Of a DNA stretch of 64,000 bases, positions 4,254-28,117 are shown one piece after another. Source of the DNA: an uncultured Actinomycetota bacterium (lineage in GTDB: Bacteria > Actinomycetota > Actinomycetes > JAHEKZ01); assembly GCA_963726755.1 (NCBI GenBank), contig CAVSDB010000001.1:1341225-1405224 (forward strand). Reading direction: 5' to 3'. The notes under the pieces were generated by a model. The model made no database searches, was not told where the DNA came from, and was given only the letters and a program-made list of their open reading frames with translations. The position numbers were made by a program, and so were the translations under genes. Within the stretch, counting starts at the first letter, position 1. Every line of letters starts with the position of its first letter.

Positions 4254-6309
<2,056 letters not shown>

Positions 6310-14187: not shown

Positions 14188-15539
14188 CACAGAGTCACCA
14201 CCGAAAGTGCCGTTACGCCGGAGGTCGGGAGCAAGCTCGCCGTGGTTGGCCACGAACCCGACGGGCTCTTGCCGGTGACTTTGATCTGCCATTTACCGGC
14301 CGGAAGTGAGGCATTCAGAACACCCGAGGCGTTCGTCGTACCCACCGTGATCGGGTTTTCTGTCGTGCCACAGGTCGTCGTGGTCACCGGAGTGGCGGTG
14401 ACGACCGCATTCGGCACGGCGACACCGAGTGTGTTCTTCACCGTCAGCGCCATCGGGGCCAGACGAGTAGTCGTTGTCCCGGTTCCCGCTGGGGCGATGA
14501 TGATCGCTGGTGAACGTGTGCCGCCGGCCGTTGCTGGGTCGGACTGTGCGCATGAGCCGGCCCACAGGCTGTAGCCGTCGGTGAATGGCCACAGCGAGTT
14601 CACGGTTGTCGTCGCGCTGCTGGTCGTTACGACGCGAGTTCCGGTCGGCTGTAGCCCGGTGTTGGCAAGGGTCAAGGCTGGCCACGAAGCTGGTAGCGAG
14701 TATCCGCCCTCAGTGATGTACGTGACTGCCAGTGTCGCGGCCTTGTCGTAGTTAATGGTGACCTGCGACAGAGTTCCAGCGGTAACGACCACTGACTTAT
14801 CTGGTGTTTGGTCGCCATAGAAGTCCACGTAGCCCGGTTCGTTCATCGATGCCGTGTACGTACCGGGAGTGGACAGCGCGAACACCGCGCAACCGTCGAC
14901 GGCTGTGGTGTCGCTGAACGTGCCTGCGGGTCCAGTGATCGAGACCGTACGGTTCTTGCTCGGCAGGCCAGCTGCATCCAGGACCTTGACGCCGACGAAT
15001 GACAGCGTTGACGACAGCACACCCTTCGGTGGCGTCAGCACTGTGTTGGACGTCGACGGGAGGAACCGTGCCCATGTTGGGCCACGAAACCTCGACGTTC
15101 ACGGCAAGCGTTGGGTAGGTAATGGCTGCGCCACCGTCGCAACTGCTTTGACCGGTTCCGGCTGGCAGCCACTCGACATTGCGCTTGACCGTGTACGGAA
15201 TCGCCGTCCACCTTCAGGTCGGCACCGGCGCTCTGGCCAGGCAACGGATGTGGGTTCAGCACGAAGTTGGCGGCCGCCAACGCACCGGGCGCCGTCAACG
15301 ACGAGTTGAACTCATTGCGCGTGATTTCCAACTCGCGCGATGCGAGATTGGCCGCAGCTACCCGGTTCTTGTCCAGGCGCGTGGTCTTCATCGCGGCTGC
15401 CAAGCCCCATAACAATGGCGCTGGCGACGATCGAGAAAATCACCATCGCGACTACCAGCTCGATAAGCGTGAGTCCCCCCTCACCATCAAGCTGAGCACG
15501 ACGGCGAAAAGAGAGAAGATTCGGCCATGACCTCTGCAT
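14187..15539 (-). pseudogene. large pilin-like protein (FimT/PilX-like) with prepilin N-terminus; at least 3 frameshifts
   Basis: N-terminus in ORF 15312..15602 (GGLTLIELVVAMVIFSIVAS), middle in ORF 15035..15415, then a third frame (WTAIPYTVKRNVEWLPAGTGQSSCDGG...), and C-terminus in ORF 14187..15041. Traced by hand. Confidence 0.5.
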
Positions 15540-15590
15540 GGGCGTCTTATCGGCATCTGAAATAGCCGACTTGAACGGGGACGAGCAACG

Positions 15591-15624
15591 GCTCGGGGCC
15601 ACACCGTGTGGTGTGCCCCCGAGC
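15591..15624 (-). terminator. hairpin terminator downstream of pilA copy 1
   Basis: GCTCGGGGCCACACC/GGTGTGCCCCCGAGC near-perfect stem. No strong U-tract (an I-shaped terminator, common in actinobacteria). Confidence 0.4.
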
Positions 15625-15663
15625 CAGTTGCATCTGATTCACCCTGGGTAGTACAATGGGTGA

Positions 15664-16077
15664 TCAGTTGTTCACGCAAACGCCGCCGGCAGCCTGGAGG
15701 CCACCGTCGTTGCTGTCGTAGATCCAGTTGGCCTGCGAACCAGGCTGCGCACCGGCGATACGAGTGATGGTCACGCAGTAAGACGAACCGATGGTCGAAA
15801 CGGCCACCGCTGCGTTGTTACCTGGCGAAAGCTTGACTGCAGCAGGAACCGCAGCCGGGTAGGTCTGAGTGTCAGTGAACGCAGTTTCCATCTCGTTGGC
15901 CACCGCGCGAGCGTCAGCCTTCATCGATGCGTCAACAGCCTTCTGACGCTGGTTCAAGAACACCGGGATAGCAATAGCAGCAAGAATACCGATGATGATA
16001 ACGACGACCAGGAGCTCGATGAGGGTGAAGCCTTCCTCATTCTCGTCCATGGCCTTACGGATGCGAGCGAGCATCAT
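15664..16077 (-). CDS. pilA: type IV major pilin PilA, copy 1
   Basis: Track ORF 15664..16128 trimmed to the MM start with GAAGGGA ribosome-binding site. MMLARIRKAMDENEEGFTLIELLVVVIIIGILAAIAIPVF is a canonical type IVa prepilin leader plus N-methyl-Phe helix. Confidence 0.85.
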   Translation of the reverse strand: MMLARIRKAMDENEEGFTLIELLVVVIIIGILAAIAIPVFLNQRQKAVDASMKADARAVANEMETAFTDTQTYPAAVPAAVKLSPGNNAAVAVSTIGSSYCVTITRIAGAQPGSQANWIYDSNDGGLQAAGGVCVNN

Positions 16078-16317
16078 TTGTCCCTTCAGGACGTAACGGT
16101 GAGCCGTACGGCGCTCGCCCTGGACCACCCCTAAGGGCTGACCGAGGTAGCTGGGCTAACCACATGGGTCCCCTGGCTTTGCGAACCCGCCTCACGACGG
16201 GAGTGCCTTGTCTGGCCGGTTGGCTCTTTACAAGTACTGTTTCGACCCCCCACATACCCGTCTTGAGCCACGATGATCACAGACTTCACCGGCGAGTTCC
16301 ACCGCTGACAACAAGCA

Positions 16318-16351
16318 GACTCGGGGCCACACCGTGTGGTGTGACCCCGAG
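16318..16351 (-). terminator. hairpin terminator downstream of pilA copy 2
   Basis: ACTCGGGGCCACACC/GGTGTGACCCCGAGT, paralogous to the copy-1 hairpin. Confidence 0.4.
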
Positions 16352-16395
16352 TCCTGCTAGTGATAATGCGATCAGATGATCTGGTGATCAGCCGA

Positions 16396-16809
16396 TCAGT
16401 TGTTCACGCAGACCCCGCCGGCAGCCTGGAGGCCACCGTCGTTGCTGTCGTAGATCCAGTTGGCCTGCGAACCAGGCTGCGCACCGGCGATACGAGTGAT
16501 GGTCACGCAGTAAGACGAACCGATCGTCGAAACGGCCACCACTGCCTTGTTACCTGGCGAAAGCTTGACCGCAGCAGGAACCGCAGCCGGGTAGGTCTGA
16601 GTGTCAGTGAACGCAGTTTCCATCTCGTTGGCCACCGCGCGAGCGTCAGCCTTCATCGATGCGTCAACAGCCTTCTGACGCTGGTTCAAGAACACCGGGA
16701 TAGCAATAGCAGCAAGAATACCGATGATGATAACGACGACCAGGAGCTCGATGAGGGTGAAGCCTTCCTCATTCTCGTCCATGGCCTTGCGGATGCGAGC
16801 GAGCATCAT
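16396..16809 (-). CDS. pilA: type IV major pilin PilA, copy 2 (one amino-acid difference from copy 1)
   Basis: Track ORF 16396..16860. Identical 154-aa translation except SPGNNAAVAV vs SPGNKAVVAV. Confidence 0.85.
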   Translation of the reverse strand: MMLARIRKAMDENEEGFTLIELLVVVIIIGILAAIAIPVFLNQRQKAVDASMKADARAVANEMETAFTDTQTYPAAVPAAVKLSPGNKAVVAVSTIGSSYCVTITRIAGAQPGSQANWIYDSNDGGLQAAGGVCVNN

Positions 16810-17270
16810 TTGTCCCTTCAGGACGTAACGGTGAGCCGTACGGCGCTCGCCCTGGACCACCCCTAAGGGCTGACCGAGGTAGCTGGGCTAACCACTGGGT
16901 CCCCTGGCTTTGCGAACCCGCCTCACGACGGGAGTGCCTTGTCTGGCCGGTTGGCTCTTTACAAGTACTGTTTCGACCCCCCACATACCCGTCTTGAGCC
17001 ACGATGATCACGACTTGGCATCACACCCAGACGGCCCAACGTCCAGTGGCGCCTTCAAGAGCCGGCGTGCTCTGCGCGCTCCTTGATCCCATGGAACGTC
17101 CCGCGAGCCATGACAGATCGGCGGGGATGATGGCCATGAGCTGCGCAGCGAGTTCGTGTGGGGATCCACCTCACGACGGTGAAGAAGGCAGTCCCGGCCC
17201 AAATGGCTTCGGGGCTGGTGTCGATGGTGATCGCAGGGTTAGTCGCGACCTGCGGACAGGCTTCCCCTGA

Positions 17271-17694
17271 CTAGCTCTCGATCATGCTTGGGCGAAACCT
17301 CCGACCTGACACTGCATCGACCTCGACACGCACAAAGACCGGCTTAGGGCCTCGTTGCCAGGCGATGACCGGCAGACTCAAAACTGTCAAGTATTTCGTG
17401 AACGTTCGTCAGGGAACGAGCTCGTCCCTTGAGCACGACGCTCCACGCCTCGCCGGATTCTTGGTCCACTCCGTCAACCTCGAAGGCGACGCGGTGCCCA
17501 TCTGCCGCGTTGAGTTTGGTCCCGAGCGCTGTTCGGAACATCACCGTGCCGTGGTCGACCAGATGGTTGACCGGGAAGATCTCTGGCTGCTCGTCCAAGA
17601 CCACTGCCAGCCGCCCCACTTGCGCACTTCGGACTAGATCCCAACAGGTGTTATCTCGAAGCACCTCGATCGCATCGGTTCCGTCTTGTTGCAT
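17271..17694 (-). pseudogene. pyridoxamine 5'-phosphate oxidase family / F420-dependent-like small enzyme; C-terminus frameshifted near 17345
   Basis: Track ORF 17344..17694 (116 aa PPOX-like). The expected C-terminus PVFVRVEVDAVSGRRFRPSMIES* is in another frame immediately downstream. Confidence 0.5.
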
Positions 17695-17805: not shown

Positions 17806-19428
17806 GTGGATCCTGGCTCCGAGCGGATAGCGCGACTACTGGACGCCGTGCTCGCGGTCAGTTCCGATCTCGATCTGTCCCAGGTGCTGTCCCGAATCGT
17901 CCAATCTGCCTGCGATCTGGTCGACGCGAGGTATGGCGCCCTTGGTGTGCTCGCTCCGGAAGGTGAACACCTGGTCGAGTTTGTGACCCAGGGACTCTCC
18001 GACGCGAACGGCGGGCTATTGGCGACCTGCCGCACGGGCGAGGAATTCTCGGATTGCTGATCCGTGACCCTCAACCGCGACGCGTCCGCGACATCGCGAC
18101 GCATCCGGCCTCCTACGGTTTCCCGCCAAACCATCCGCCTATGCACAGCTTCCTGGGGGCGCCCATCGCCATCCGCGGAAGAGGTGTTCGGCAACCTCTA
18201 TCTGGCCAACAAGCAAGACGCACGTGGAGTTCAGCGCAAGACGATCAGGAAGTCGTCGTCGCGTTGGCCGCGGCTGCTGGCGTCGCCATCGACAACGCGC
18301 GCCTGTACGACCGATCGCGCCGGCAACGCGAACTCGCTGACGCGCTTGCCGAGATGACGCAGCATCTTCTGGAAGGCATGGAAACCGACGCGGCCCTTCG
18401 CTTGATGGCCCGGCGCAGCGCTGAGATGGCGGTTGCCGAGCTCGCCGTCGTGGCGCTGTATGACGAAGGTGGTCGACTTACCGTCCGCGCGACCAACGAC
18501 GAACGACCCTCGCATGGTGTTGGCCTTGAACTTGACCCCGACTTTCGATGGAGCGAGTTGGTCGCACGCCGGTTGCCATATCTCATTTCCGAACCCGACC
18601 AAGACTCGAACACCGAGCTGGCTGAAATCCGACAACTGGGTTCACTGGATCCCGACGGTCCCACAGCGATCGTCGCCATCGCAGTCGGTGACGCCGAGCT
18701 CGGGGTGCTTGGCGTCGCATGGAACTCTGACCAAGACGTTGCCGCCCGTCAGTCACTCGACTCTTTACACACCTTTGGGCGAACGGCTGCGCTAGCCCTC
18801 GAGGCAGCAACTGCTCAACGTGAGCGTGGGCGGGTAGCACTTCTTGAGGATCGAGACCGAATCGCTCGAGACATGCATGACCACGTGATTCAACGGCTGT
18901 TCGCCACCGGACTGTCGTTGCAGTCGACCAGGCTGATGACGTCGGATGACGCGGTGTGCCAGCGACTCGACGAGGCCGTGGACGCGATTGACGTGGCGAT
19001 CAAAGACATTCGAGAGGCGATCTTCGCGTTGCATCGTCCGATCGGAGGTCTTGGTGTTCAGGCCGAAGTCGACGAACTTGTCCGCCACGCCGGCCGCACG
19101 CTGGGGTACAACCCAGAGGTCAGCACGAGTGGATCGTGGGGCTCTCTGCCGTTCGGAGATAGAGCCGGAGTTGTTGGCAGTCGTCCGCGAGGCCCTGTCG
19201 AACGTCGTTCGCCACGCTCAGGCGAGCTGGTGTCGAGTGTCGGTCCACGTGACCGATTCGGTTGTGAGAGTCGAGGTGGAAGACGACGGAATGGGGATTC
19301 CCAAGGACGCTGAGTTGAGCGGACTCAGGAATCTCGAGCGACGAGCTGCCCGGCTCGAACGGCAGCCTGCAGTTGGCCGCTCGCCATCCAACGGGAACCG
19401 TCCTCATGTGGCAGGTGCCGGTCAAGTA
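17806..19428 (+). pseudogene. GAF-GAF-HisKA_3-HATPase sensor histidine kinase (DevS/DosT-like); at least 5 frameshifts
   Basis: ORFs 17806..18060, 18054..19313, 18064..18357 (GEEVFGNLYLANKQDARG GAF signature) and 18946..19524 (HATPase: LAVVREALSNVVRHA...VEVEDDGMGIP). HisKA_3 RDRIARDMHDHVIQRLFATGLSL. The true C-terminus LAARHPTGTVLMWQVPVK* is in yet another frame. Confidence 0.7.
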
Positions 19429-19435
19429 GGGCAGG

Positions 19436-20078
19436 TCAAGAGTCAGGTTGCTGTTGGTGGGTTACCGCAAACACCGCAGCCTGCGTTCGACGCTGCATGC
19501 CGAGCTTTCCCAGTATCGACGTGACGTAGTTCTTGACCGTCTTCTCGGCCAGCGACATCGATTCGCCGATTTGCGCGTTCGTCTGTCCGTCGGCAATGTG
19601 TTGCAGAATTCGTCGCTCCTGCGGAGTTAGCGCTGACAGTCGAGGATCTGTTCGAGTGTCGCCCCAGCGGTCGCGGATCTGCGCGCGACGCGCTTCGTCG
19701 ATCAGTGACTCACCGGCCGCCACCTTGCGTATCGAGTCGACCAGAGTGTTTCCCTTGACGTCCTTAAGTACGTACCCGGCAGCACCGGCGCGATCGCGCT
19801 TGACCAGCGCCTGCTCGTCGTCGTACGACGTCACGATGAGCGCTGCGATGCTGGGATCAACGGAACGAATGTCTCGACAGGTATCGATGCCCGACCCATC
19901 GGGCAGCCGCGCATCCAACAGCGCGACATCGGGACGAAGCGCCGGAATCCTGCGAGTTGCTTCGAGAGCCGAACCCGGACTCTCCGACCACTTCGATGTC
20001 GTCCTCGCGCTCGAACAACTCTCGGAGCCCGCGTCGGACGATCTCGTGATCGTCGAGAATGAACACCCGAATCGTCAT
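19436..20078 (-). pseudogene. NarL/LuxR-family response regulator (DevR-like); one frameshift near 19950
   Basis: Receiver N-terminus in ORF 19857..20078 (MTIRVFILDDHEIVRRGLRELFERED). Rest, including the HTH (LTPQERRILQHIADGQTNAQIGESMSLAEKTVKNYVTSILGKLG), in ORF 19436..19918. Confidence 0.75.
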
Positions 20079-23279: not shown

Positions 23280-24977
23280 TCACGAAGAACTAGTCCGCCA
23301 ATAGCCAGCTAGACCACGACGCGCAGGATCTCGTCGAGTGAGGTGACACCCTGCAGCACCTTGGACAGGCCGTCCTCGCGCAGCGTGACCATGCCTTCTT
23401 CGCGGGCCGCGACGGTGATGGCTGCCGACGAAGCGCGTTCGACCGCCAGCCGCTCGATGTTCTCCGAGACGGCCATCACCTCGTGCAGGGCCAGTCGGCC
23501 CTTGTAGCCGGTCTTGGAGCAGGCCGGACACCCGATGGGCCGATACAGCGTCGGCAGCGGCGTGCCCTTGCTCCCACGGGAACCGCGCGGCAACCATGGC
23601 CTCAGCGGTCGGCTCGTAGGCTTCCTTGCACTTCTTGCAGAGTCGACGGGCCAGGCGCTGGGCGAGCACACCGTCCACCGCCGATCCGACAAGGAACGGC
23701 TCCAGACCCATTTCCGTCAAGCGGGTGATGGCCGAGGGGGCGTCGTTGGTGTGCAACGTGGAGAGCACCAGGTGGCCGGTCAGGGCCGCCTCAACGGCGA
23801 TCTGGGCCGTCTCGTGGTCACGAATCTCACCGATGAGCACGATGTCGGGGTCGCATCGAAGGATCGAGCGAAGTGCCGCGGCGAACGACAGTCCAGCTTT
23901 GACGTTCGTCTGCACCTGGTTGATGCCAGCGAGTCGGTACTCAACCGGGTCCTCGACGGTGATGACGTTGACCTCAGGACGAGCGATCTGGTTCAGCGTG
24001 CCGTACAGCGTCGTGGACTTGCCAGAACCCGTTGGTCCGGTGACCAGGATCATCCCGTAGGGCTTGGTGAAACTCGACGAGTAGATCTCGTAGTTGTGGT
24101 CTGAGAACCCGAGGTCAGTCAGCGCCATCGCGGCCTGCGAGTTGTCCAGGATTCGCATGACGACCTTCTCGCCCCACACCGTTGGAAGGGTGGCGACACG
24201 AAGGTCGATCTTCTTGCCGTTGTAGTTGACCGACAAGCGGCCGTCCTGCGGTACCCGTCGTTCAGCAATGTTGATGTCCGACATGATTTTCAGTCGGCTG
24301 ATAACACCGGACTGGATGTTCTTGGGCGACTTCATCACCTGGTGCAGGACACCATCGATGCGGTACCGGACGACGAGCGAGTGCTCGCCTGGCTCGAGGT
24401 GAATATCCGATGCGCGGTCCTGAATTGCCTGCGTAATAAGCAAGTTCACGTACTTGACGATGGGGGCGTCTTCGACGACCTCTTTGACCGACGAGAGGTC
24501 TTCGTCGTCGGCGTCGTTGTCAAGAACCGCCGTGAGGTCATCGAGGTCGGAGTCAGCGCGGTAGTACCGGTCAATGGCCGAGAGAACATCCGCTCGAGTA
24601 GCGACCACTGGCTTGACGTCATAGCCAGTGATCGATCGAACGTCGTCGATCGCGAAGACGTTCGCTGGGTCAGCCATCGCCAGCAGGAGCTTGCCCTCGT
24701 CGTCGACGCGGAGCGGCATCACGCTGTACTTGCGACAGATCTCGCCCTTGACCCGGCCGACGATGCTGCCGTCAACGGGATAGTCGGCCAGGTCGACAAA
24801 CTCAAGTCGAATCTGCTGCGCCAATGCCGCCACGAGCTGGGACTCGGTGAGGAAGCCTCGATCGACCAGAATGCGGCCGAGTGCCTTGCCTTCGGTCTTG
24901 TGCATCTGGAACGCCTCGGCGAGCTGGTCTGCCGTAACCAGGCCGCTCGAAATCAAGATGTCGCCCAGTTGCGTCAC
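23280..24977 (-). pseudogene. pilB: type IV pilus assembly ATPase PilB (GspE family); C-terminal frameshift near 23600
   Basis: Track ORF 23280..24977 carries the N1 domain, Walker A VTGPTGSGKSTTLY and the CKKC zinc motif. The true C-terminus (YRPIGCPACSKTGYKGRLALHEVM...LDEILRVVV) is in ORF 23309..23692. Confidence 0.85.
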
Positions 24978-25319: not shown

Positions 25320-25895
25320 CTACACGCTGGCCGGAGTGGCTTCGACCTCGTCGAGGACCGAGTAGAGCAGCGCGAGCAGCACTGACTTCACCGACTCCTT
25401 GTCGGTCGCGTCGCAGGGCACCATAGGCACCGCTGGACTGATCCCAAGGGCCTGCCGGATCCTGGCTTCCTCGACCTCGTCGACGCCTTCAGTGCGGTTC
25501 AGCGCGACAACGAAAGGCACTCGGGCCATCTTTCGGAACGCGGCCAGAATGCCAACCGCCTCCTGCAATGAGTCCGAGCGGGTGACGTCCAGCAACAGGA
25601 TGTACCCGAGCATGCCCTCACCCAGGATTTCCCACATGAAGTCGAAACGTTCCTGACCAGGGGTGCCGAACAGATACAGCACCAGTTCGCGATCAATGGT
25701 GATGCGACCGAAGTCCATCGCCACGGTGGTTTCGTTCTTCCGCGACTTGGTGTGGTCGGTGATCCCTCTCTCAGTTGAGAGCACGGTGATCTCACTGATC
25801 GTGCGAATCAGCGTGGTCTTACCAGCCGAGAACGGTCCGGTGATAACGACCTTGACGGCCTGACCACCGTGACGTCGACGCTTGTTGTTGGCCAT
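25320..25895 (-). CDS. small Ras-like GTPase (MglA/CvnD-type 'ATP/GTP-binding protein')
   Basis: Track ORF, 191 aa. P-loop GPFSAGKTT, TTVAMDFGRI, LYLFGTPGQERF (G3) and ALNRTEG (NKxD-like). Start 4 nt after the upstream stop. Confidence 0.75.
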   Translation of the reverse strand: MANNKRRRHGGQAVKVVITGPFSAGKTTLIRTISEITVLSTERGITDHTKSRKNETTVAMDFGRITIDRELVLYLFGTPGQERFDFMWEILGEGMLGYILLLDVTRSDSLQEAVGILAAFRKMARVPFVVALNRTEGVDEVEEARIRQALGISPAVPMVPCDATDKESVKSVLLALLYSVLDEVEATPASV

Positions 25896-25899
25896 GGCT

Positions 25900-27159
25900 T
25901 CAGAGCCCCCGCACGCCGGCGATGAGTCGCAGCATCAGACTGCGATTGACCGTGGGATCACGCTCGATGGCTGCTTCCCCGACGGGTTGTACCGCCGCGG
26001 CAGCCCCGCCCGATGCGGTGGCAGACACCACCGAAGAGGCCTGGGGAGCGACGGGGGCAGCCGGTGGCGCCGGGGGGGCTGGAGCGGCAGGTGACGCAAA
26101 ACTGCTCCGAGCCGGTTCCGGGTGGTCGATAGCACGTTTGGGCATGAACGGTTCGGGTCGCGGCGGAACCACATTGAGCGGATCGTGGGCTCCACCGAGG
26201 AGACCGGGGGCAGCTTGAGCAGCCGCTGGCGCCACAGCAGGTTGCTCAACGGGCGCTGGCTGAGCCGGCACCGCGGGTGTTGACGGGATCTCGGGGAGCA
26301 TGTGAGATTCGGCCGCCAACCCTGGAACCGGTGGGGCTGAGACTTGCGGTTCGGGGGGTGCGCTGGCTGGCGCCAGTGTTTCAGTGGAAGTGGTCGGGGT
26401 GATTTCAAGCGGACCCAGAAGTTGCTGACGTCGCTGAACCAACTCGATGTGATCAGGTGCTTCCTCGTCACGAATGACGAGCATCCCCCGCTGAACTAAG
26501 GCGGTCAGCGTTGCGACCACAGCGAACTGACTTGCTCCAGAAATTTCAACAATGTCGCCAACTGACCGCTGACCGTCGACCAAGGCCAGCAGCGACCATT
26601 CGTCTCGAGTAAGGCTCTGATCACCGGTAACCACGACGGGCATGGTGAGCAGCACGTCTGGCGAAGGAATGACCTTGGATACCGCATCCCAGTTTTCGCG
26701 GCGGGCAGTGGCCTCAGACACCACGTGCTCTGACGAAACCGCGAGCCCGACATCGTCTGGGTTGTCCTCGCCGACGCCGAAGGCAAAGTCCCCCTCGACC
26801 CATCGCAGCAGGTCGAAGACGGAATCGATTGCCTGCTCGAGGGCAAGCTGCTGGATCAGTTCGCCGTTGACTGCCCCGGATTCGAGGAGGGCACGGGCAA
26901 CACCGACACCCTCAGTTGTCGCTCGCTCAACGGCCCGTCGCAATGCTGCGTCGTCGCAGGCGCCAATGCCGACGAGACGACGTGCCAGGGACTGACGTGC
27001 GGCGTTGGAGCACGCACCGGTGACCACTCCGGCGTTGAAGTAGACGACGCCGGTGGCCTGGCCGTTGGCCAGGTGCAACCCCCCGGACTTCTTCGTCAGG
27101 CTCAGCAGCTGGAAGACATCCGGAAGGCTGAAGGCGTCAAGCGAACCTTCGAGCTTCAC
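25900..27159 (-). CDS. PATAN (DUF4388) domain protein with Pro/Ala-rich C-terminal half
   Basis: Track ORF, 419 aa. N-terminus MKLEGSLDAFSLPDVFQLLSLTKKSGGLHL is the PATAN/DUF4388 signature. Second PATAN-like stretch DEWSLLALVDGQRSVGDIVE. Confidence 0.65.
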   Translation of the reverse strand: MKLEGSLDAFSLPDVFQLLSLTKKSGGLHLANGQATGVVYFNAGVVTGACSNAARQSLARRLVGIGACDDAALRRAVERATTEGVGVARALLESGAVNGELIQQLALEQAIDSVFDLLRWVEGDFAFGVGEDNPDDVGLAVSSEHVVSEATARRENWDAVSKVIPSPDVLLTMPVVVTGDQSLTRDEWSLLALVDGQRSVGDIVEISGASQFAVVATLTALVQRGMLVIRDEEAPDHIELVQRRQQLLGPLEITPTTSTETLAPASAPPEPQVSAPPVPGLAAESHMLPEIPSTPAVPAQPAPVEQPAVAPAAAQAAPGLLGGAHDPLNVVPPRPEPFMPKRAIDHPEPARSSFASPAAPAPPAPPAAPVAPQASSVVSATASGGAAAAVQPVGEAAIERDPTVNRSLMLRLIAGVRGL

Positions 27160-27186
27160 GTGTGTTCTCGTTCCTCGTCGTGGTGG

Positions 27187-28008
27187 TTAGTTCCAGGAGC
27201 CGTTCTCTGGAGCGACTGACGAGCCTGCTGCCGCCACCGTTGTGCCGTTCGAGTTCGATCGATCATCACGCTCGGCACGGCCATTCCAGGCACCCGTCCC
27301 GTTCGCTACTGGCGCCGGGAGGTACGAGGTGTCATCAGGCTCAGCCAACTGCGCGACCGGCTGCACCTGGTGCACCGGCTCGGGCTGTTCCTGCTGTTCC
27401 TGATGTTCTGGCTGCTCTTGCTGGTCGACGAGGCTGTGTTCTGCCAGCAACGGAATGGTCTCCTGGGGGGCTTCCTCGACCGGCTCCAGGGTGGGCATCA
27501 CCGGGGCGATGACCGCCAGTACTGGCTCTGCGACGGTTTCGGGAGCGGCTTCTTCAGGCACTGGAGCCACGGCGACCAGCGGTGGCTGAGTCGACTCGTG
27601 CTCGACGCGAAGGCTATTCGCGACTGCTTCGGCTGCCTGCTTGACCTCGAACAGCATCAGGCCGACCTTGGCGCCGCGGCGTCCGACTGCGACCAGTACG
27701 GCCTCGTCGTCGGCGCTGACCAAGAAGACCGTCCCGTTGTCACCCTCGACGTAGACCTGGGAAAGCTCCCCGCGGCCTAGTCCTTGGGCCGCCCGCTCGC
27801 CCAGTGAGAGCAGCGCCGCCGACATCGCGGCTACCCGGTCTTCGTCCATACCCGCGGGTAGGGCCGAGGCCATGGGTAGGCCGTCGAACGACACCACCGA
27901 TGCGGCCTCAAGATCGGGGGCTTGTCTGAGCAACGTGGCGAGCACGTGGTCGAGCTGGGCCGATCGGTTGCTCGCCCCGGCTGTTGCACCGGCGTATGGG
28001 TCGGACAT
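27187..28008 (-). CDS. Roadblock/LC7 (MglB-like) domain protein with Gln/Glu-rich C-terminal tail
   Basis: Track ORF 27187..28032 trimmed to Met of MSDPYAG with GAGAGG ribosome-binding site. LDHVLATLLRQAPDLEAASVVSFDGLPMAS...GTVFLVSADDEAVLVAV is typical Roadblock/LC7. Confidence 0.65.
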   Translation of the reverse strand: MSDPYAGATAGASNRSAQLDHVLATLLRQAPDLEAASVVSFDGLPMASALPAGMDEDRVAAMSAALLSLGERAAQGLGRGELSQVYVEGDNGTVFLVSADDEAVLVAVGRRGAKVGLMLFEVKQAAEAVANSLRVEHESTQPPLVAVAPVPEEAAPETVAEPVLAVIAPVMPTLEPVEEAPQETIPLLAEHSLVDQQEQPEHQEQQEQPEPVHQVQPVAQLAEPDDTSYLPAPVANGTGAWNGRAERDDRSNSNGTTVAAAGSSVAPENGSWN

Positions 28009-28117
28009 AGTGCACCTCTCGCACGGAACCACTCAACAGAACGCACTCAAGAGAACGTCCCCGTCGACTTCAAAAGGCGTCCGTCCGCGACGGTGCCTGG
28101 GATGTGCTTCGGCGCTG

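Follow-up and report, generated by a model that had tools for sequence, protein, structure and literature searches.

Predicted class I c-di-GMP riboswitches in the leaders of two tandem major pilin genes of an uncultured Actinomycetota bacterium

Signaling by cyclic di-GMP (c-di-GMP) in Actinomycetota is known mainly through protein effectors, namely, BldD and the RsiG-WhiG pair. Type IVa pili are barely studied in this phylum, in which only pili of the Tad/Flp type have been examined so far (review PMC6916266). In Clostridioides difficile, the riboswitch Cdi2_4 located upstream of pilA1 is a canonical antitermination element that acts as an ON switch (Bordeleau et al. 2015, as cited in PMC6916266). 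At the level of transcription initiation, WhiG2 of Actinomycetota is sequestered by RsiG together with c-di-GMP, and WhiG has type IV pilus clusters among its predicted or confirmed targets; the actinobacterial consensus is T(A/C)AA-N16-GCCGATAA for WhiG2 and CTCA-N16-17-GCCGAACT for WhiG1, with an invariant central CGA (PMC12871210, a preprint in which riboswitches go unmentioned). Here we describe the leaders of two tandem copies of pilA, the gene for the major type IV pilin, in a 64-kb stretch of the genome of an uncultured Actinomycetota bacterium (contig CAVSDB010000001.1; this whole stretch is hereinafter the window). Each of the two genes is likely to be preceded by a GEMM-I c-di-GMP riboswitch that is transcribed from a WhiG-type promoter and operates by a switch between the P1 helix of the aptamer and a competing anti-P1 hairpin.

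The two genes belong to near-identical units that lie in tandem on the minus strand of 15300-17400, each consisting of ~226 nt of upstream DNA, a gene for a 136-aa prepilin and a strong terminator-like hairpin. A scan of the entire window against Rfam at the gathering thresholds yielded one tRNA and two matches to RF01051 (c-di-GMP-I), and nothing else. The RF01051 matches, at 16143-16217 (42.4 bits) and 16875-16948 (42.5 bits), are both on the minus strand, exceed the gathering score of 35 (E-values, ~6e-5) and span the full model (positions 1-87 of 87). In each case, the aptamer is located in the 5'-untranslated region (5'-UTR), in the sense orientation, between a conserved promoter and the pilA start:

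16140-16217, minus strand: copy B c-di-GMP-I aptamer from P1 to P1, identified by the RF01051 match (42.4 bits), a covariance model of the family (91.3 bits) and covariation.
16212-16217 with 16140-16146, minus strand: copy B P1, in which the 3' strand CU-C-GGUC pairs with GGCCAG.
16181-16206, minus strand: copy B P2, a 6-bp hairpin (CCCGUC/GGCGGG) with the GUGA loop at 16192-16195.
16149-16178, minus strand: copy B P3, AGCC-A-GGGGACC...GGUU-AG-CCC-A-GCU.
16872-16948, minus strand: copy A c-di-GMP-I aptamer (RF01051, 42.5 bits; family covariance model, 89.9 bits).

The P3 loop is 1 nt shorter in copy A, and this indel is the only difference between the two leaders. The original prediction, put forward as a weak hypothesis, was that of a class I c-di-GMP half-site in the leader, with a second copy near 16822-16947. 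The sequence segments that it quoted are indeed present in both leaders, and the class and the second copy were called correctly; the element is, however, a complete aptamer that includes P3 and the 3' strand of P1, that is, the 3' half that was said not to fold. The proposed 5-bp hairpin does carry a GNRA (GUGA) loop, but its stem consists of 6 bp, the original prediction having one C extra. The replacement of the junction AAA by ACU is also real but maps to the internal loop of P2, which makes no ligand contact and is variable in the family (ACA, ACU, AUU, AAA). The alternative assignment to the class II family RF01786 found no support: this model gives zero matches in 15600-17400 even at E<=10, so the window RNA does not belong to c-di-GMP-II.

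The ligand-contacting positions are canonical. In copy B, G16207, A16180 and C16147 occupy the positions that, based on the Rfam alignment and the Vc2 structure, we take to be the equivalents of G20, A47 and C92 of the Vibrio cholerae Vc2 aptamer; according to the Rfam alignment, the copy A equivalents are canonical as well. The P2 loop is a GNRA tetraloop in all aligned sequences (GUGA, GAGA, GCGA, GCAA, GUAA or GGGA), with the G and the A invariant; inspection of the P3 sequence reveals no recognizable canonical 11-nt tetraloop receptor. Judging from sequence, both leaders contain full-length GEMM-I aptamers with every defining feature of RF01051 that is amenable to this kind of test. Because the ligand-contacting bases are canonical, the aptamer most likely binds c-di-GMP, and we are highly confident that the two aptamers are genuine c-di-GMP-binding members of GEMM-I. 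It is also very likely, albeit slightly less so, that the aptamer regulates pilA in cis.

For comparative analysis, the window pilin was used to fetch 80 pilin loci from representative genomes (denoted by L numbers below), in which aptamers were identified first with a regular expression and then with a covariance model built from the family. An aptamer precedes the major pilin gene in 29 of these 80 related actinobacterial loci, always on the strand of the pilin gene and 135-160 nt ahead of its start, which bears out the notion that pilin genes are typical targets of c-di-GMP riboswitches. Among the carriers is the culturable Aquipuribacter hungaricus (L019); the loci from Kineococcus, Cellulomonas and Nocardioides lack the aptamer. 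In the tandem pilin arrays of L014 (two copies), L031 (three) and L076 (two), each copy has its own aptamer, and all 23 homologous copies that were run against Rfam reach a gathering score. When 28 leaders from 22 other genomes are aligned with MAFFT, the G20, A47 and C92 columns are invariant, as are the GGCA, GNRA, CGCAAAGC and CCU blocks, whereas the stems vary. Across the helices P0 (see below), P1, P2 and P3, 94% of the cells are standard pairs, compared to 22-47% in slid controls; both-side compensatory changes occur at 14 pairs, and the observed values were reached in none of 500 shuffles. RNAalifold, run without structure input, recovers P1, P2 and P3. Thus, neither of the findings that had been named in advance as refuting the original prediction, the lack of an Rfam match above the gathering threshold and the lack of a covarying 3' pairing partner, materialized.

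The leader spans ~157 nt, from an inferred transcription start near 16231 to the start codon at 16074, which is the second ATG and, by comparison with the 80 loci, the true start of pilA. Besides the aptamer, it includes the following elements:

16222-16226, minus strand: copy B 5' box GAGCC, the 5' strand of P0, which pairs with GGCUC at 16101-16105.
16101-16105, minus strand: copy B 3' box GGCUC, the 3' strand of P0 (covariation and duplex search).
16119-16147, minus strand: copy B extended anti-P1 hairpin, in which CCUCGG (P1 3' strand) pairs with GGUCCAGG around the hairpin H1 (GCCCUUAGGGGU).
16112-16118, minus strand: copy B GCGAGCG box, complementary to CGCUCGC of codons 2-4.
16080-16092, minus strand: copy B Shine-Dalgarno (SD) hairpin GUCCU-GAA-GGGAC, a predicted fold that includes the SD sequence AAGGGA 6 nt ahead of the start.
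16953-16957, minus strand: copy A 5' box GAGCC (P0 5' strand), same as in copy B.
16812-16879, minus strand: copy A expression platform with anti-P1/H1, GCGAGCG box, P0 3' box (16833-16837) and SD hairpin, same as in copy B.

The GAGCC box lies ~5 nt downstream of the inferred transcription start, and its GGCUC partner 25-31 nt ahead of the AUG. In the MAFFT columns, the resulting P0 helix is 94% paired, with double changes at three of the five pairs; in 22 of 24 leaders, the 3' box at this distance from the AUG is the best duplex partner of the 5' box, and covariants include GAGCU/AGCUC, AGCAGC/GCUGCU, GAACCGC/GCGGUUU and UGCUGCG/CGCGGCA. In the riboswitch-free leaders of the Kineococcus type, the P0 stem (GAGCCGC/GCGGCUC) encloses just one or two small hairpins. 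The presence of P0 in these relatives implies that it is ancestral, and that the aptamer and H1 occupy its tip. Seven such riboswitch-free Kineococcus/Kineosporiaceae loci (L006, L008, L032, L038, L062, L007 and L051) retain the WhiG-type promoter and P0, and share an SD/start hairpin, GAGCAU-NNN-AUGCUC, within a conserved leader ~110 nt upstream of the pilin (~3001).

The invariant CCUCGG of the P1 3' strand can alternatively pair with a purine-rich stretch located beyond H1 (CGAGG, CCAGG, CAAGG and others). The resulting anti-P1 hairpin and P1 are mutually exclusive; in most leaders, the hairpin appears in the unconstrained or P1-forbidden folds (in the window, in the minimum-energy folds of both kinds), and an equivalent CCUCG...CGAGG hairpin recurs in other clades. 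The P1-enforced and P1-forbidden ensembles differ by only ~0.5-5 kcal/mol, as expected for a poised switch. Further downstream, the GCGAGCG box, which is common to the clade of L001, L064, L068 and L070 and the Kineococcus-type leaders, pairs with the start region in every predicted ensemble of the window leader, and a GUCCU/AGGAC hairpin resembling the SD hairpin of the window is found in many homologous leaders. In all leaders, opening of the strongly structured ribosome-binding region would cost 9-20 kcal/mol.

A separate observation concerns codons 1-7 of pilA (ATG CTC GCT CGC ATC CGC AAG; 16053-16074 and 16785-16806, minus strand), which are conserved at the nucleotide level in most of the loci L001-L080, including synonymous sites such as the GCT codon for Ala, which is rare in high-GC genomes; several GAGC boxes of the leaders are complementary to this stretch. 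We discarded this conservation as evidence for a riboswitch because riboswitch-free pilin loci are equally conserved.

When the 75-nt segments preceding all aptamers are aligned, a conserved (G)CTCAAG (or CTAAAG) emerges, followed, after N15-16, by nCCGA(A/T). The corresponding elements of the two pilA promoters are:

16262-16267, minus strand: copy B -35-like element CTCAAG, which contains both CTCA and TCAA and fits the WhiG1/WhiG2 -35 consensus of PMC12871210.
16239-16246, minus strand: copy B -10-like element GTCGAAAC (consensus GCCGAWNN, with the central CGA).
16993-16998, minus strand: copy A -35-like element CTCAAG, as in the conserved motif.
16970-16977, minus strand: copy A -10-like element GTCGAAAC, as in the conserved motif.

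Under the rule adopted from PMC12871210 (an exact T(A/C)AA or CTCA, N16-17, and GCCGA, with CGA exact and at most one mismatch at positions 1-2), both pilA promoters qualify, as CTCA-N17-GTCGA or, equivalently, TCAA-N16-GTCGA, at 16267-16242 and 16998-16973; the CGA of the -10 element is intact, and the single mismatch is at position 2. A stricter form of the motif is found upstream of the pilin gene in 50 of 75 loci, namely, in 25 of the 27 that bear the riboswitch, at -191 to -217, and in 25 of the 48 that do not, at -89 to -124. The shift of the promoter by ~100 nt between the two groups matches the length of the aptamer. In the window, the strict motif occurs eight times on the minus strand and not at all on the plus strand, against 1.5 occurrences expected, and five of the eight are intergenic within the pilus cluster (28134, 23274, 16998, 16267 and 10856); a perfect copy, TCAA-N16-GCCGATAA, precedes the minor-pilin operon at 15574-15547 (minus strand). 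A scan for sigma-70-type promoters found nothing.

Apart from the pilA genes, motifs of the WhiG/FliA (sigma-28) type (CTCAAG-N-nCCGA) occur on the minus strand at 28134-28109, 23274-23249, 15574-15547 and 10856-10831, ahead of the remaining operons of the cluster, which comprise Roadblock/DUF4388/GTPase/pilB, the pilT region, the minor pilins and pilMNO. The entire pilus cluster looks like a sigma-28 regulon in which the riboswitch was added only at the two pilA genes. A search of the 64-kb window for whiG, rsiG and GGDEF genes found none, and the window has no sigma or anti-sigma gene.

In the mechanism that we propose, c-di-GMP would lock P1 and thereby dissolve the anti-P1 hairpin inside the domain closed by P0, and the leader would be remodeled in front of the structured ribosome-binding region, which comprises the SD hairpin (GUCCU/GGGAC) and the pairing of GCGAGCG with codons 2-4. 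The affected step would be translation initiation or mRNA fate rather than classical intrinsic termination. A terminator scan found no terminator-like site between the aptamer and the start codon, and because the leader lacks a U-tract terminator, the output is most likely at the level of translation initiation or mRNA fate; overall, action after transcription initiation that does not involve a classical terminator is somewhat more likely than not. With regard to the sign of the switch, the odds are close to even, with a slight lean to ON.

Several observations weigh against this reading. In the E-value mode, the best-scoring model of the clan is not RF01051 but RF03167 (c-di-GMP-I-GGC), at 47.3 bits, which is below its own gathering score of 59. 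Thermodynamic modeling detects no consistent change in SD/start accessibility with the ligand state: the ddG of opening of the region from -18 to +12 spans -6.6 to +3.1, with the mean near 0, and the SD unpaired probabilities are the same in the aptamer-forced and P1-forbidden ensembles. P0 is predicted in both states and therefore may insulate the switch from the ribosome-binding site. Moreover, a relay of four segments (P1 3' strand, purine-rich seg2, anti-SD and SD), which would free the SD upon ligand binding and thus yield an ON switch, did not survive scrutiny: it is strong in the window, with the 7-bp pairing CAGGGCG:CGUCCUG (z -3.2), and in three other clades (L014a, L023 and L040; z about -3), but the family-wide mean z is -0.5 and the permutation p for SD mimicry is ~0.1, and in the window the relay conformation lies 5.8 kcal/mol above the dominant bound fold.

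The prominence of RF03167 (47.3 and 45.4 bits for the two copies) raises the question of whether the GEMM-I fold serves here to recognize another ligand, either 3'3'-cyclic GMP-AMP (3'3'-cGAMP) or whatever ligand the 'GGC' variant class binds; the same direction is indicated by two relatives, L031a and L074, which reach the RF03167 gathering score, and by the A at the G20 position in the pilA leaders of four other loci. We consider this very unlikely for the window given that both copies have G at this position (AAG-G-GC...), unlike the cGAMP-sensing GEMM-Ib, and fall short of the RF03167 gathering score. Furthermore, where the RF03167 consensus reads ACGCGAAgC, the window has the A of the RF01051 consensus ACGCAAAgC, the sequence being ACGCAAAGC, with CGCAAAGCC rather than CGCGAAGCC; and G, A and C are retained at the three contact positions in all 28 aligned leaders. 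The most improbable of the alternatives is that the aptamer has decayed and is non-functional, or that a conserved leader structure has another role, such as mRNA stabilization or protein binding. P0 and the structured ribosome-binding region are present in aptamer-free relatives, which does imply that the leader has riboswitch-independent functions; nevertheless, covariation in the stems is accompanied, in divergent genomes, by strict invariance of the ligand contacts, the GNRA loop and the CGCAAAGCC junction, and every copy in the tandem arrays retains the aptamer. An OFF switch, by which c-di-GMP would stop pilin synthesis at the mRNA level, would parallel the sequestration of WhiG by RsiG:c-di-GMP and comes somewhat short of an even chance.

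The WhiG/FliA-type promoter, together with the sequestration of WhiG2, fits an OFF switch, as does the capacity of seg2/GCGAG, once freed by P1, to pair with CUCGC of codons 2-4 (mean duplex energy, -12.4 kcal/mol), although the start-region pairing is predicted in both states. Precedents point both ways: the C. difficile riboswitch Cd1 acts as an OFF switch for the flagellar (sigD) operon, but those pilin-gene c-di-GMP riboswitches that have been characterized (C. difficile pilA1) are, to our knowledge, ON switches. Alternatively, an ON switch could operate at the level of transcription, with the GC-rich anti-P1/H1 hairpin acting in the ligand-free state as a terminator that is either U-tract-less (I-shaped) or factor-dependent, and is blocked by c-di-GMP-stabilized P1. 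The geometry is that of classical antitermination riboswitches (C. difficile pilA1), in that a GC-rich hairpin of 10-17 bp has the P1 3' strand as its 5' arm, and the lack of a consistent predicted change at the ribosome-binding site would fit a decision made upstream of it. Still, this version seems unlikely: none of the 28 leaders has a U-run after the hairpin, whereas this organism's own pilA terminators carry U-rich tails, and intrinsic termination without a U-tract is disputed for actinobacterial RNA polymerase. A c-di-GMP-I riboswitch that probably acts after transcription initiation, with the sign leaning slightly to ON, is the reading we retain. Its extension to two-tier control of the major pilin by one messenger, through a WhiG-type promoter, the sigma factor of which is sequestered by RsiG together with c-di-GMP in many Actinomycetota, and a c-di-GMP riboswitch grafted into the tip of an ancestral stem, is tentative and, at present, rather doubtful. 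If the riboswitch is ON, the two tiers would make an incoherent feed-forward, band-pass or 'pre-loaded mRNA' circuit, in which the pilin mRNA is already transcribed at low c-di-GMP, but its expression awaits an increase in c-di-GMP, for example, upon surface contact; if it is OFF, they would amount to a coherent double lock.

Two groups of relatives deserve note in their own right. An A at the Vc2-G20 position (...AAGAGCAC...) is present in L059:912-1003, L093:~5516-5600, L136:~6-90 and L145:~435-520, of which L059 additionally has CGCAGAGCC; the latter three loci come from a metagenome scan for the A20 variant, which also returned many unrelated GEMM-I/Ib sequences. The G20A substitution is reportedly the hallmark of the cGAMP-sensing GEMM-Ib, and because these four pilA leaders share it, a cGAMP-type sub-lineage with altered specificity may exist upstream of actinobacterial pilins. 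The aptamers at L031:1374-1449 and L074:2843-2926 score 64.1 and 59.5 bits with RF03167 (gathering score, 59) despite a canonical A47; they lack the defining G of RF03167, and automated annotation would mislabel both.

The rest of the two units and their surroundings can be summarized as follows:

15664-16074, minus strand: copy B open reading frame for the major type IV pilin, prepilin MLARIRKAMDENEEG/FTLIELLVV..., 136 aa (Pfam N_methyl, E 2.3e-7; homologues named PilA).
16396-16806, minus strand: copy A open reading frame for the major pilin, which differs from copy B in a few codons.
15590-15625, minus strand: copy B terminator-like hairpin GGCUCGGGGGCACACC-ACAC-GGUGUGGCCCCGAGCC, aligned with the copy A terminator.
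16317-16354, minus strand: copy A terminator, consisting of a 17-bp hairpin and, after it, a U-rich tail (terminator scan).

By these sequence signals, each pilA is its own transcription unit, with promoter, ~157-nt leader, open reading frame and terminator. The copies are ~99% identical, the leader included, which implies recent duplication or gene conversion. Arrays of two to three major-pilin paralogues, each with its own promoter, leader and terminator, are found in L014, L031, L076 and L059 as well as in the window (15664-16998). The closest pilin among those fetched, from an uncultured Actinomycetota metagenome-assembled genome, is 82% identical, and an exact-match look-up of the window pilin in public assemblies returned no record.

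The pilA genes are surrounded by a complete type IVa pilus cluster, in the order Roadblock/MglB-like protein, DUF4388 protein, Ras-like GTPase, PilB (MshEN + T2SSE), PilT-like ATPase, a frameshifted DevS/DevR-like two-component pair, the two pilA copies, minor pilins, PilD and PilM/N/O, followed by aroC; it is flanked by the core chromosomal genes alaS, aspS, relA, secDF and ruvB. The Ras-like small GTPase, DUF4388 and Roadblock/LC7 (MglB-like) genes directly upstream of pilB (25320-28032, minus strand) recall the MglA/MglB polarity module of Myxococcus. The genes for a DevS-like GAF-GAF-HisKA_3 kinase, its LuxR-type response regulator and one minor pilin (17806-19524, plus strand; 19436-20078 and ~15400, minus strand) are each split over at least two frames and could be either pseudogenes or products of long-read homopolymer errors. 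The MshEN domain of PilB (24780-24977, minus strand) contains tandem 24-residue motifs with a 5-residue spacer, but the leading Arg of each motif has given way to another residue, Q in one (QLGDIL...) and A in the other (ALGRIL...). It is therefore uncertain whether this PilB binds c-di-GMP, and the domain is uninformative as a clue to the regulatory sign.

A conserved GEMM-I aptamer on the major pilin gene would directly connect c-di-GMP with the production of pili, at the RNA level, in many uncultured actinobacteria from soil and freshwater. Its combination with a WhiG-type promoter suggests two superimposed layers of sensing of one messenger, one protein-based and the other RNA-based, at a single gene, and the closely related leaders with and without the aptamer, which have P0 in common, offer a natural comparison for the grafting of an aptamer onto an existing leader. 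The aptamer itself is no discovery, since these loci would already be labeled c-di-GMP-I by automated annotation with Rfam.

Compared to Vc2 from V. cholerae and the other members of RF01051, the window RNAs are alike in the three-helix aptamer, the GNRA-capped hairpin, the CGCAAAGCC junction, the contacts of the G20/A47/C92 type and the location in the 5'-UTR of a surface or motility gene. They differ in the high-GC Actinomycetota host, the variable GNRA loops of P2, the lack of a recognizable 11-nt receptor in P3, the nesting in an ancestral P0 stem, the sigma-28-type promoter and the terminator-less expression platform. With Cdi2_4 of C. difficile, the window shares a c-di-GMP riboswitch on the major type IV pilin gene of a monoderm host, but Cdi2_4 belongs to class II, with an unrelated fold, and the window RNA does not match RF01786. 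The GEMM-Ib 3'3'-cGAMP riboswitches of Geobacter have the same fold and are often found on pilin or extracellular electron-transfer genes; they have A at the G20 position, as do L059, L093, L136 and L145, whereas the window copies have G. Raw similarity is highest to RF03167 (47.3 bits), the GC-rich helices of which have the same shape, but the G that defines ACGCGAAGC is replaced by A in the window copies. The WhiG/FliA regulon with the RsiG-(c-di-GMP) switch has in common with the window the CTCA or T(A/C)AA, N16-17, GCCGA motif, the pilus targets and the c-di-GMP signal (PMC12871210); RsiG is, however, a protein anti-sigma factor that acts on transcription initiation, whereas the window adds an RNA layer. 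Our literature searches found neither a description of a c-di-GMP riboswitch on actinobacterial type IVa pilin genes nor a combination of a WhiG promoter with a riboswitch. Thus, the two pilA leaders belong to an established RNA class but place it in a context that has not been described so far, and they add the sigma-28-type promoter and the nesting of the aptamer in an ancestral leader stem.

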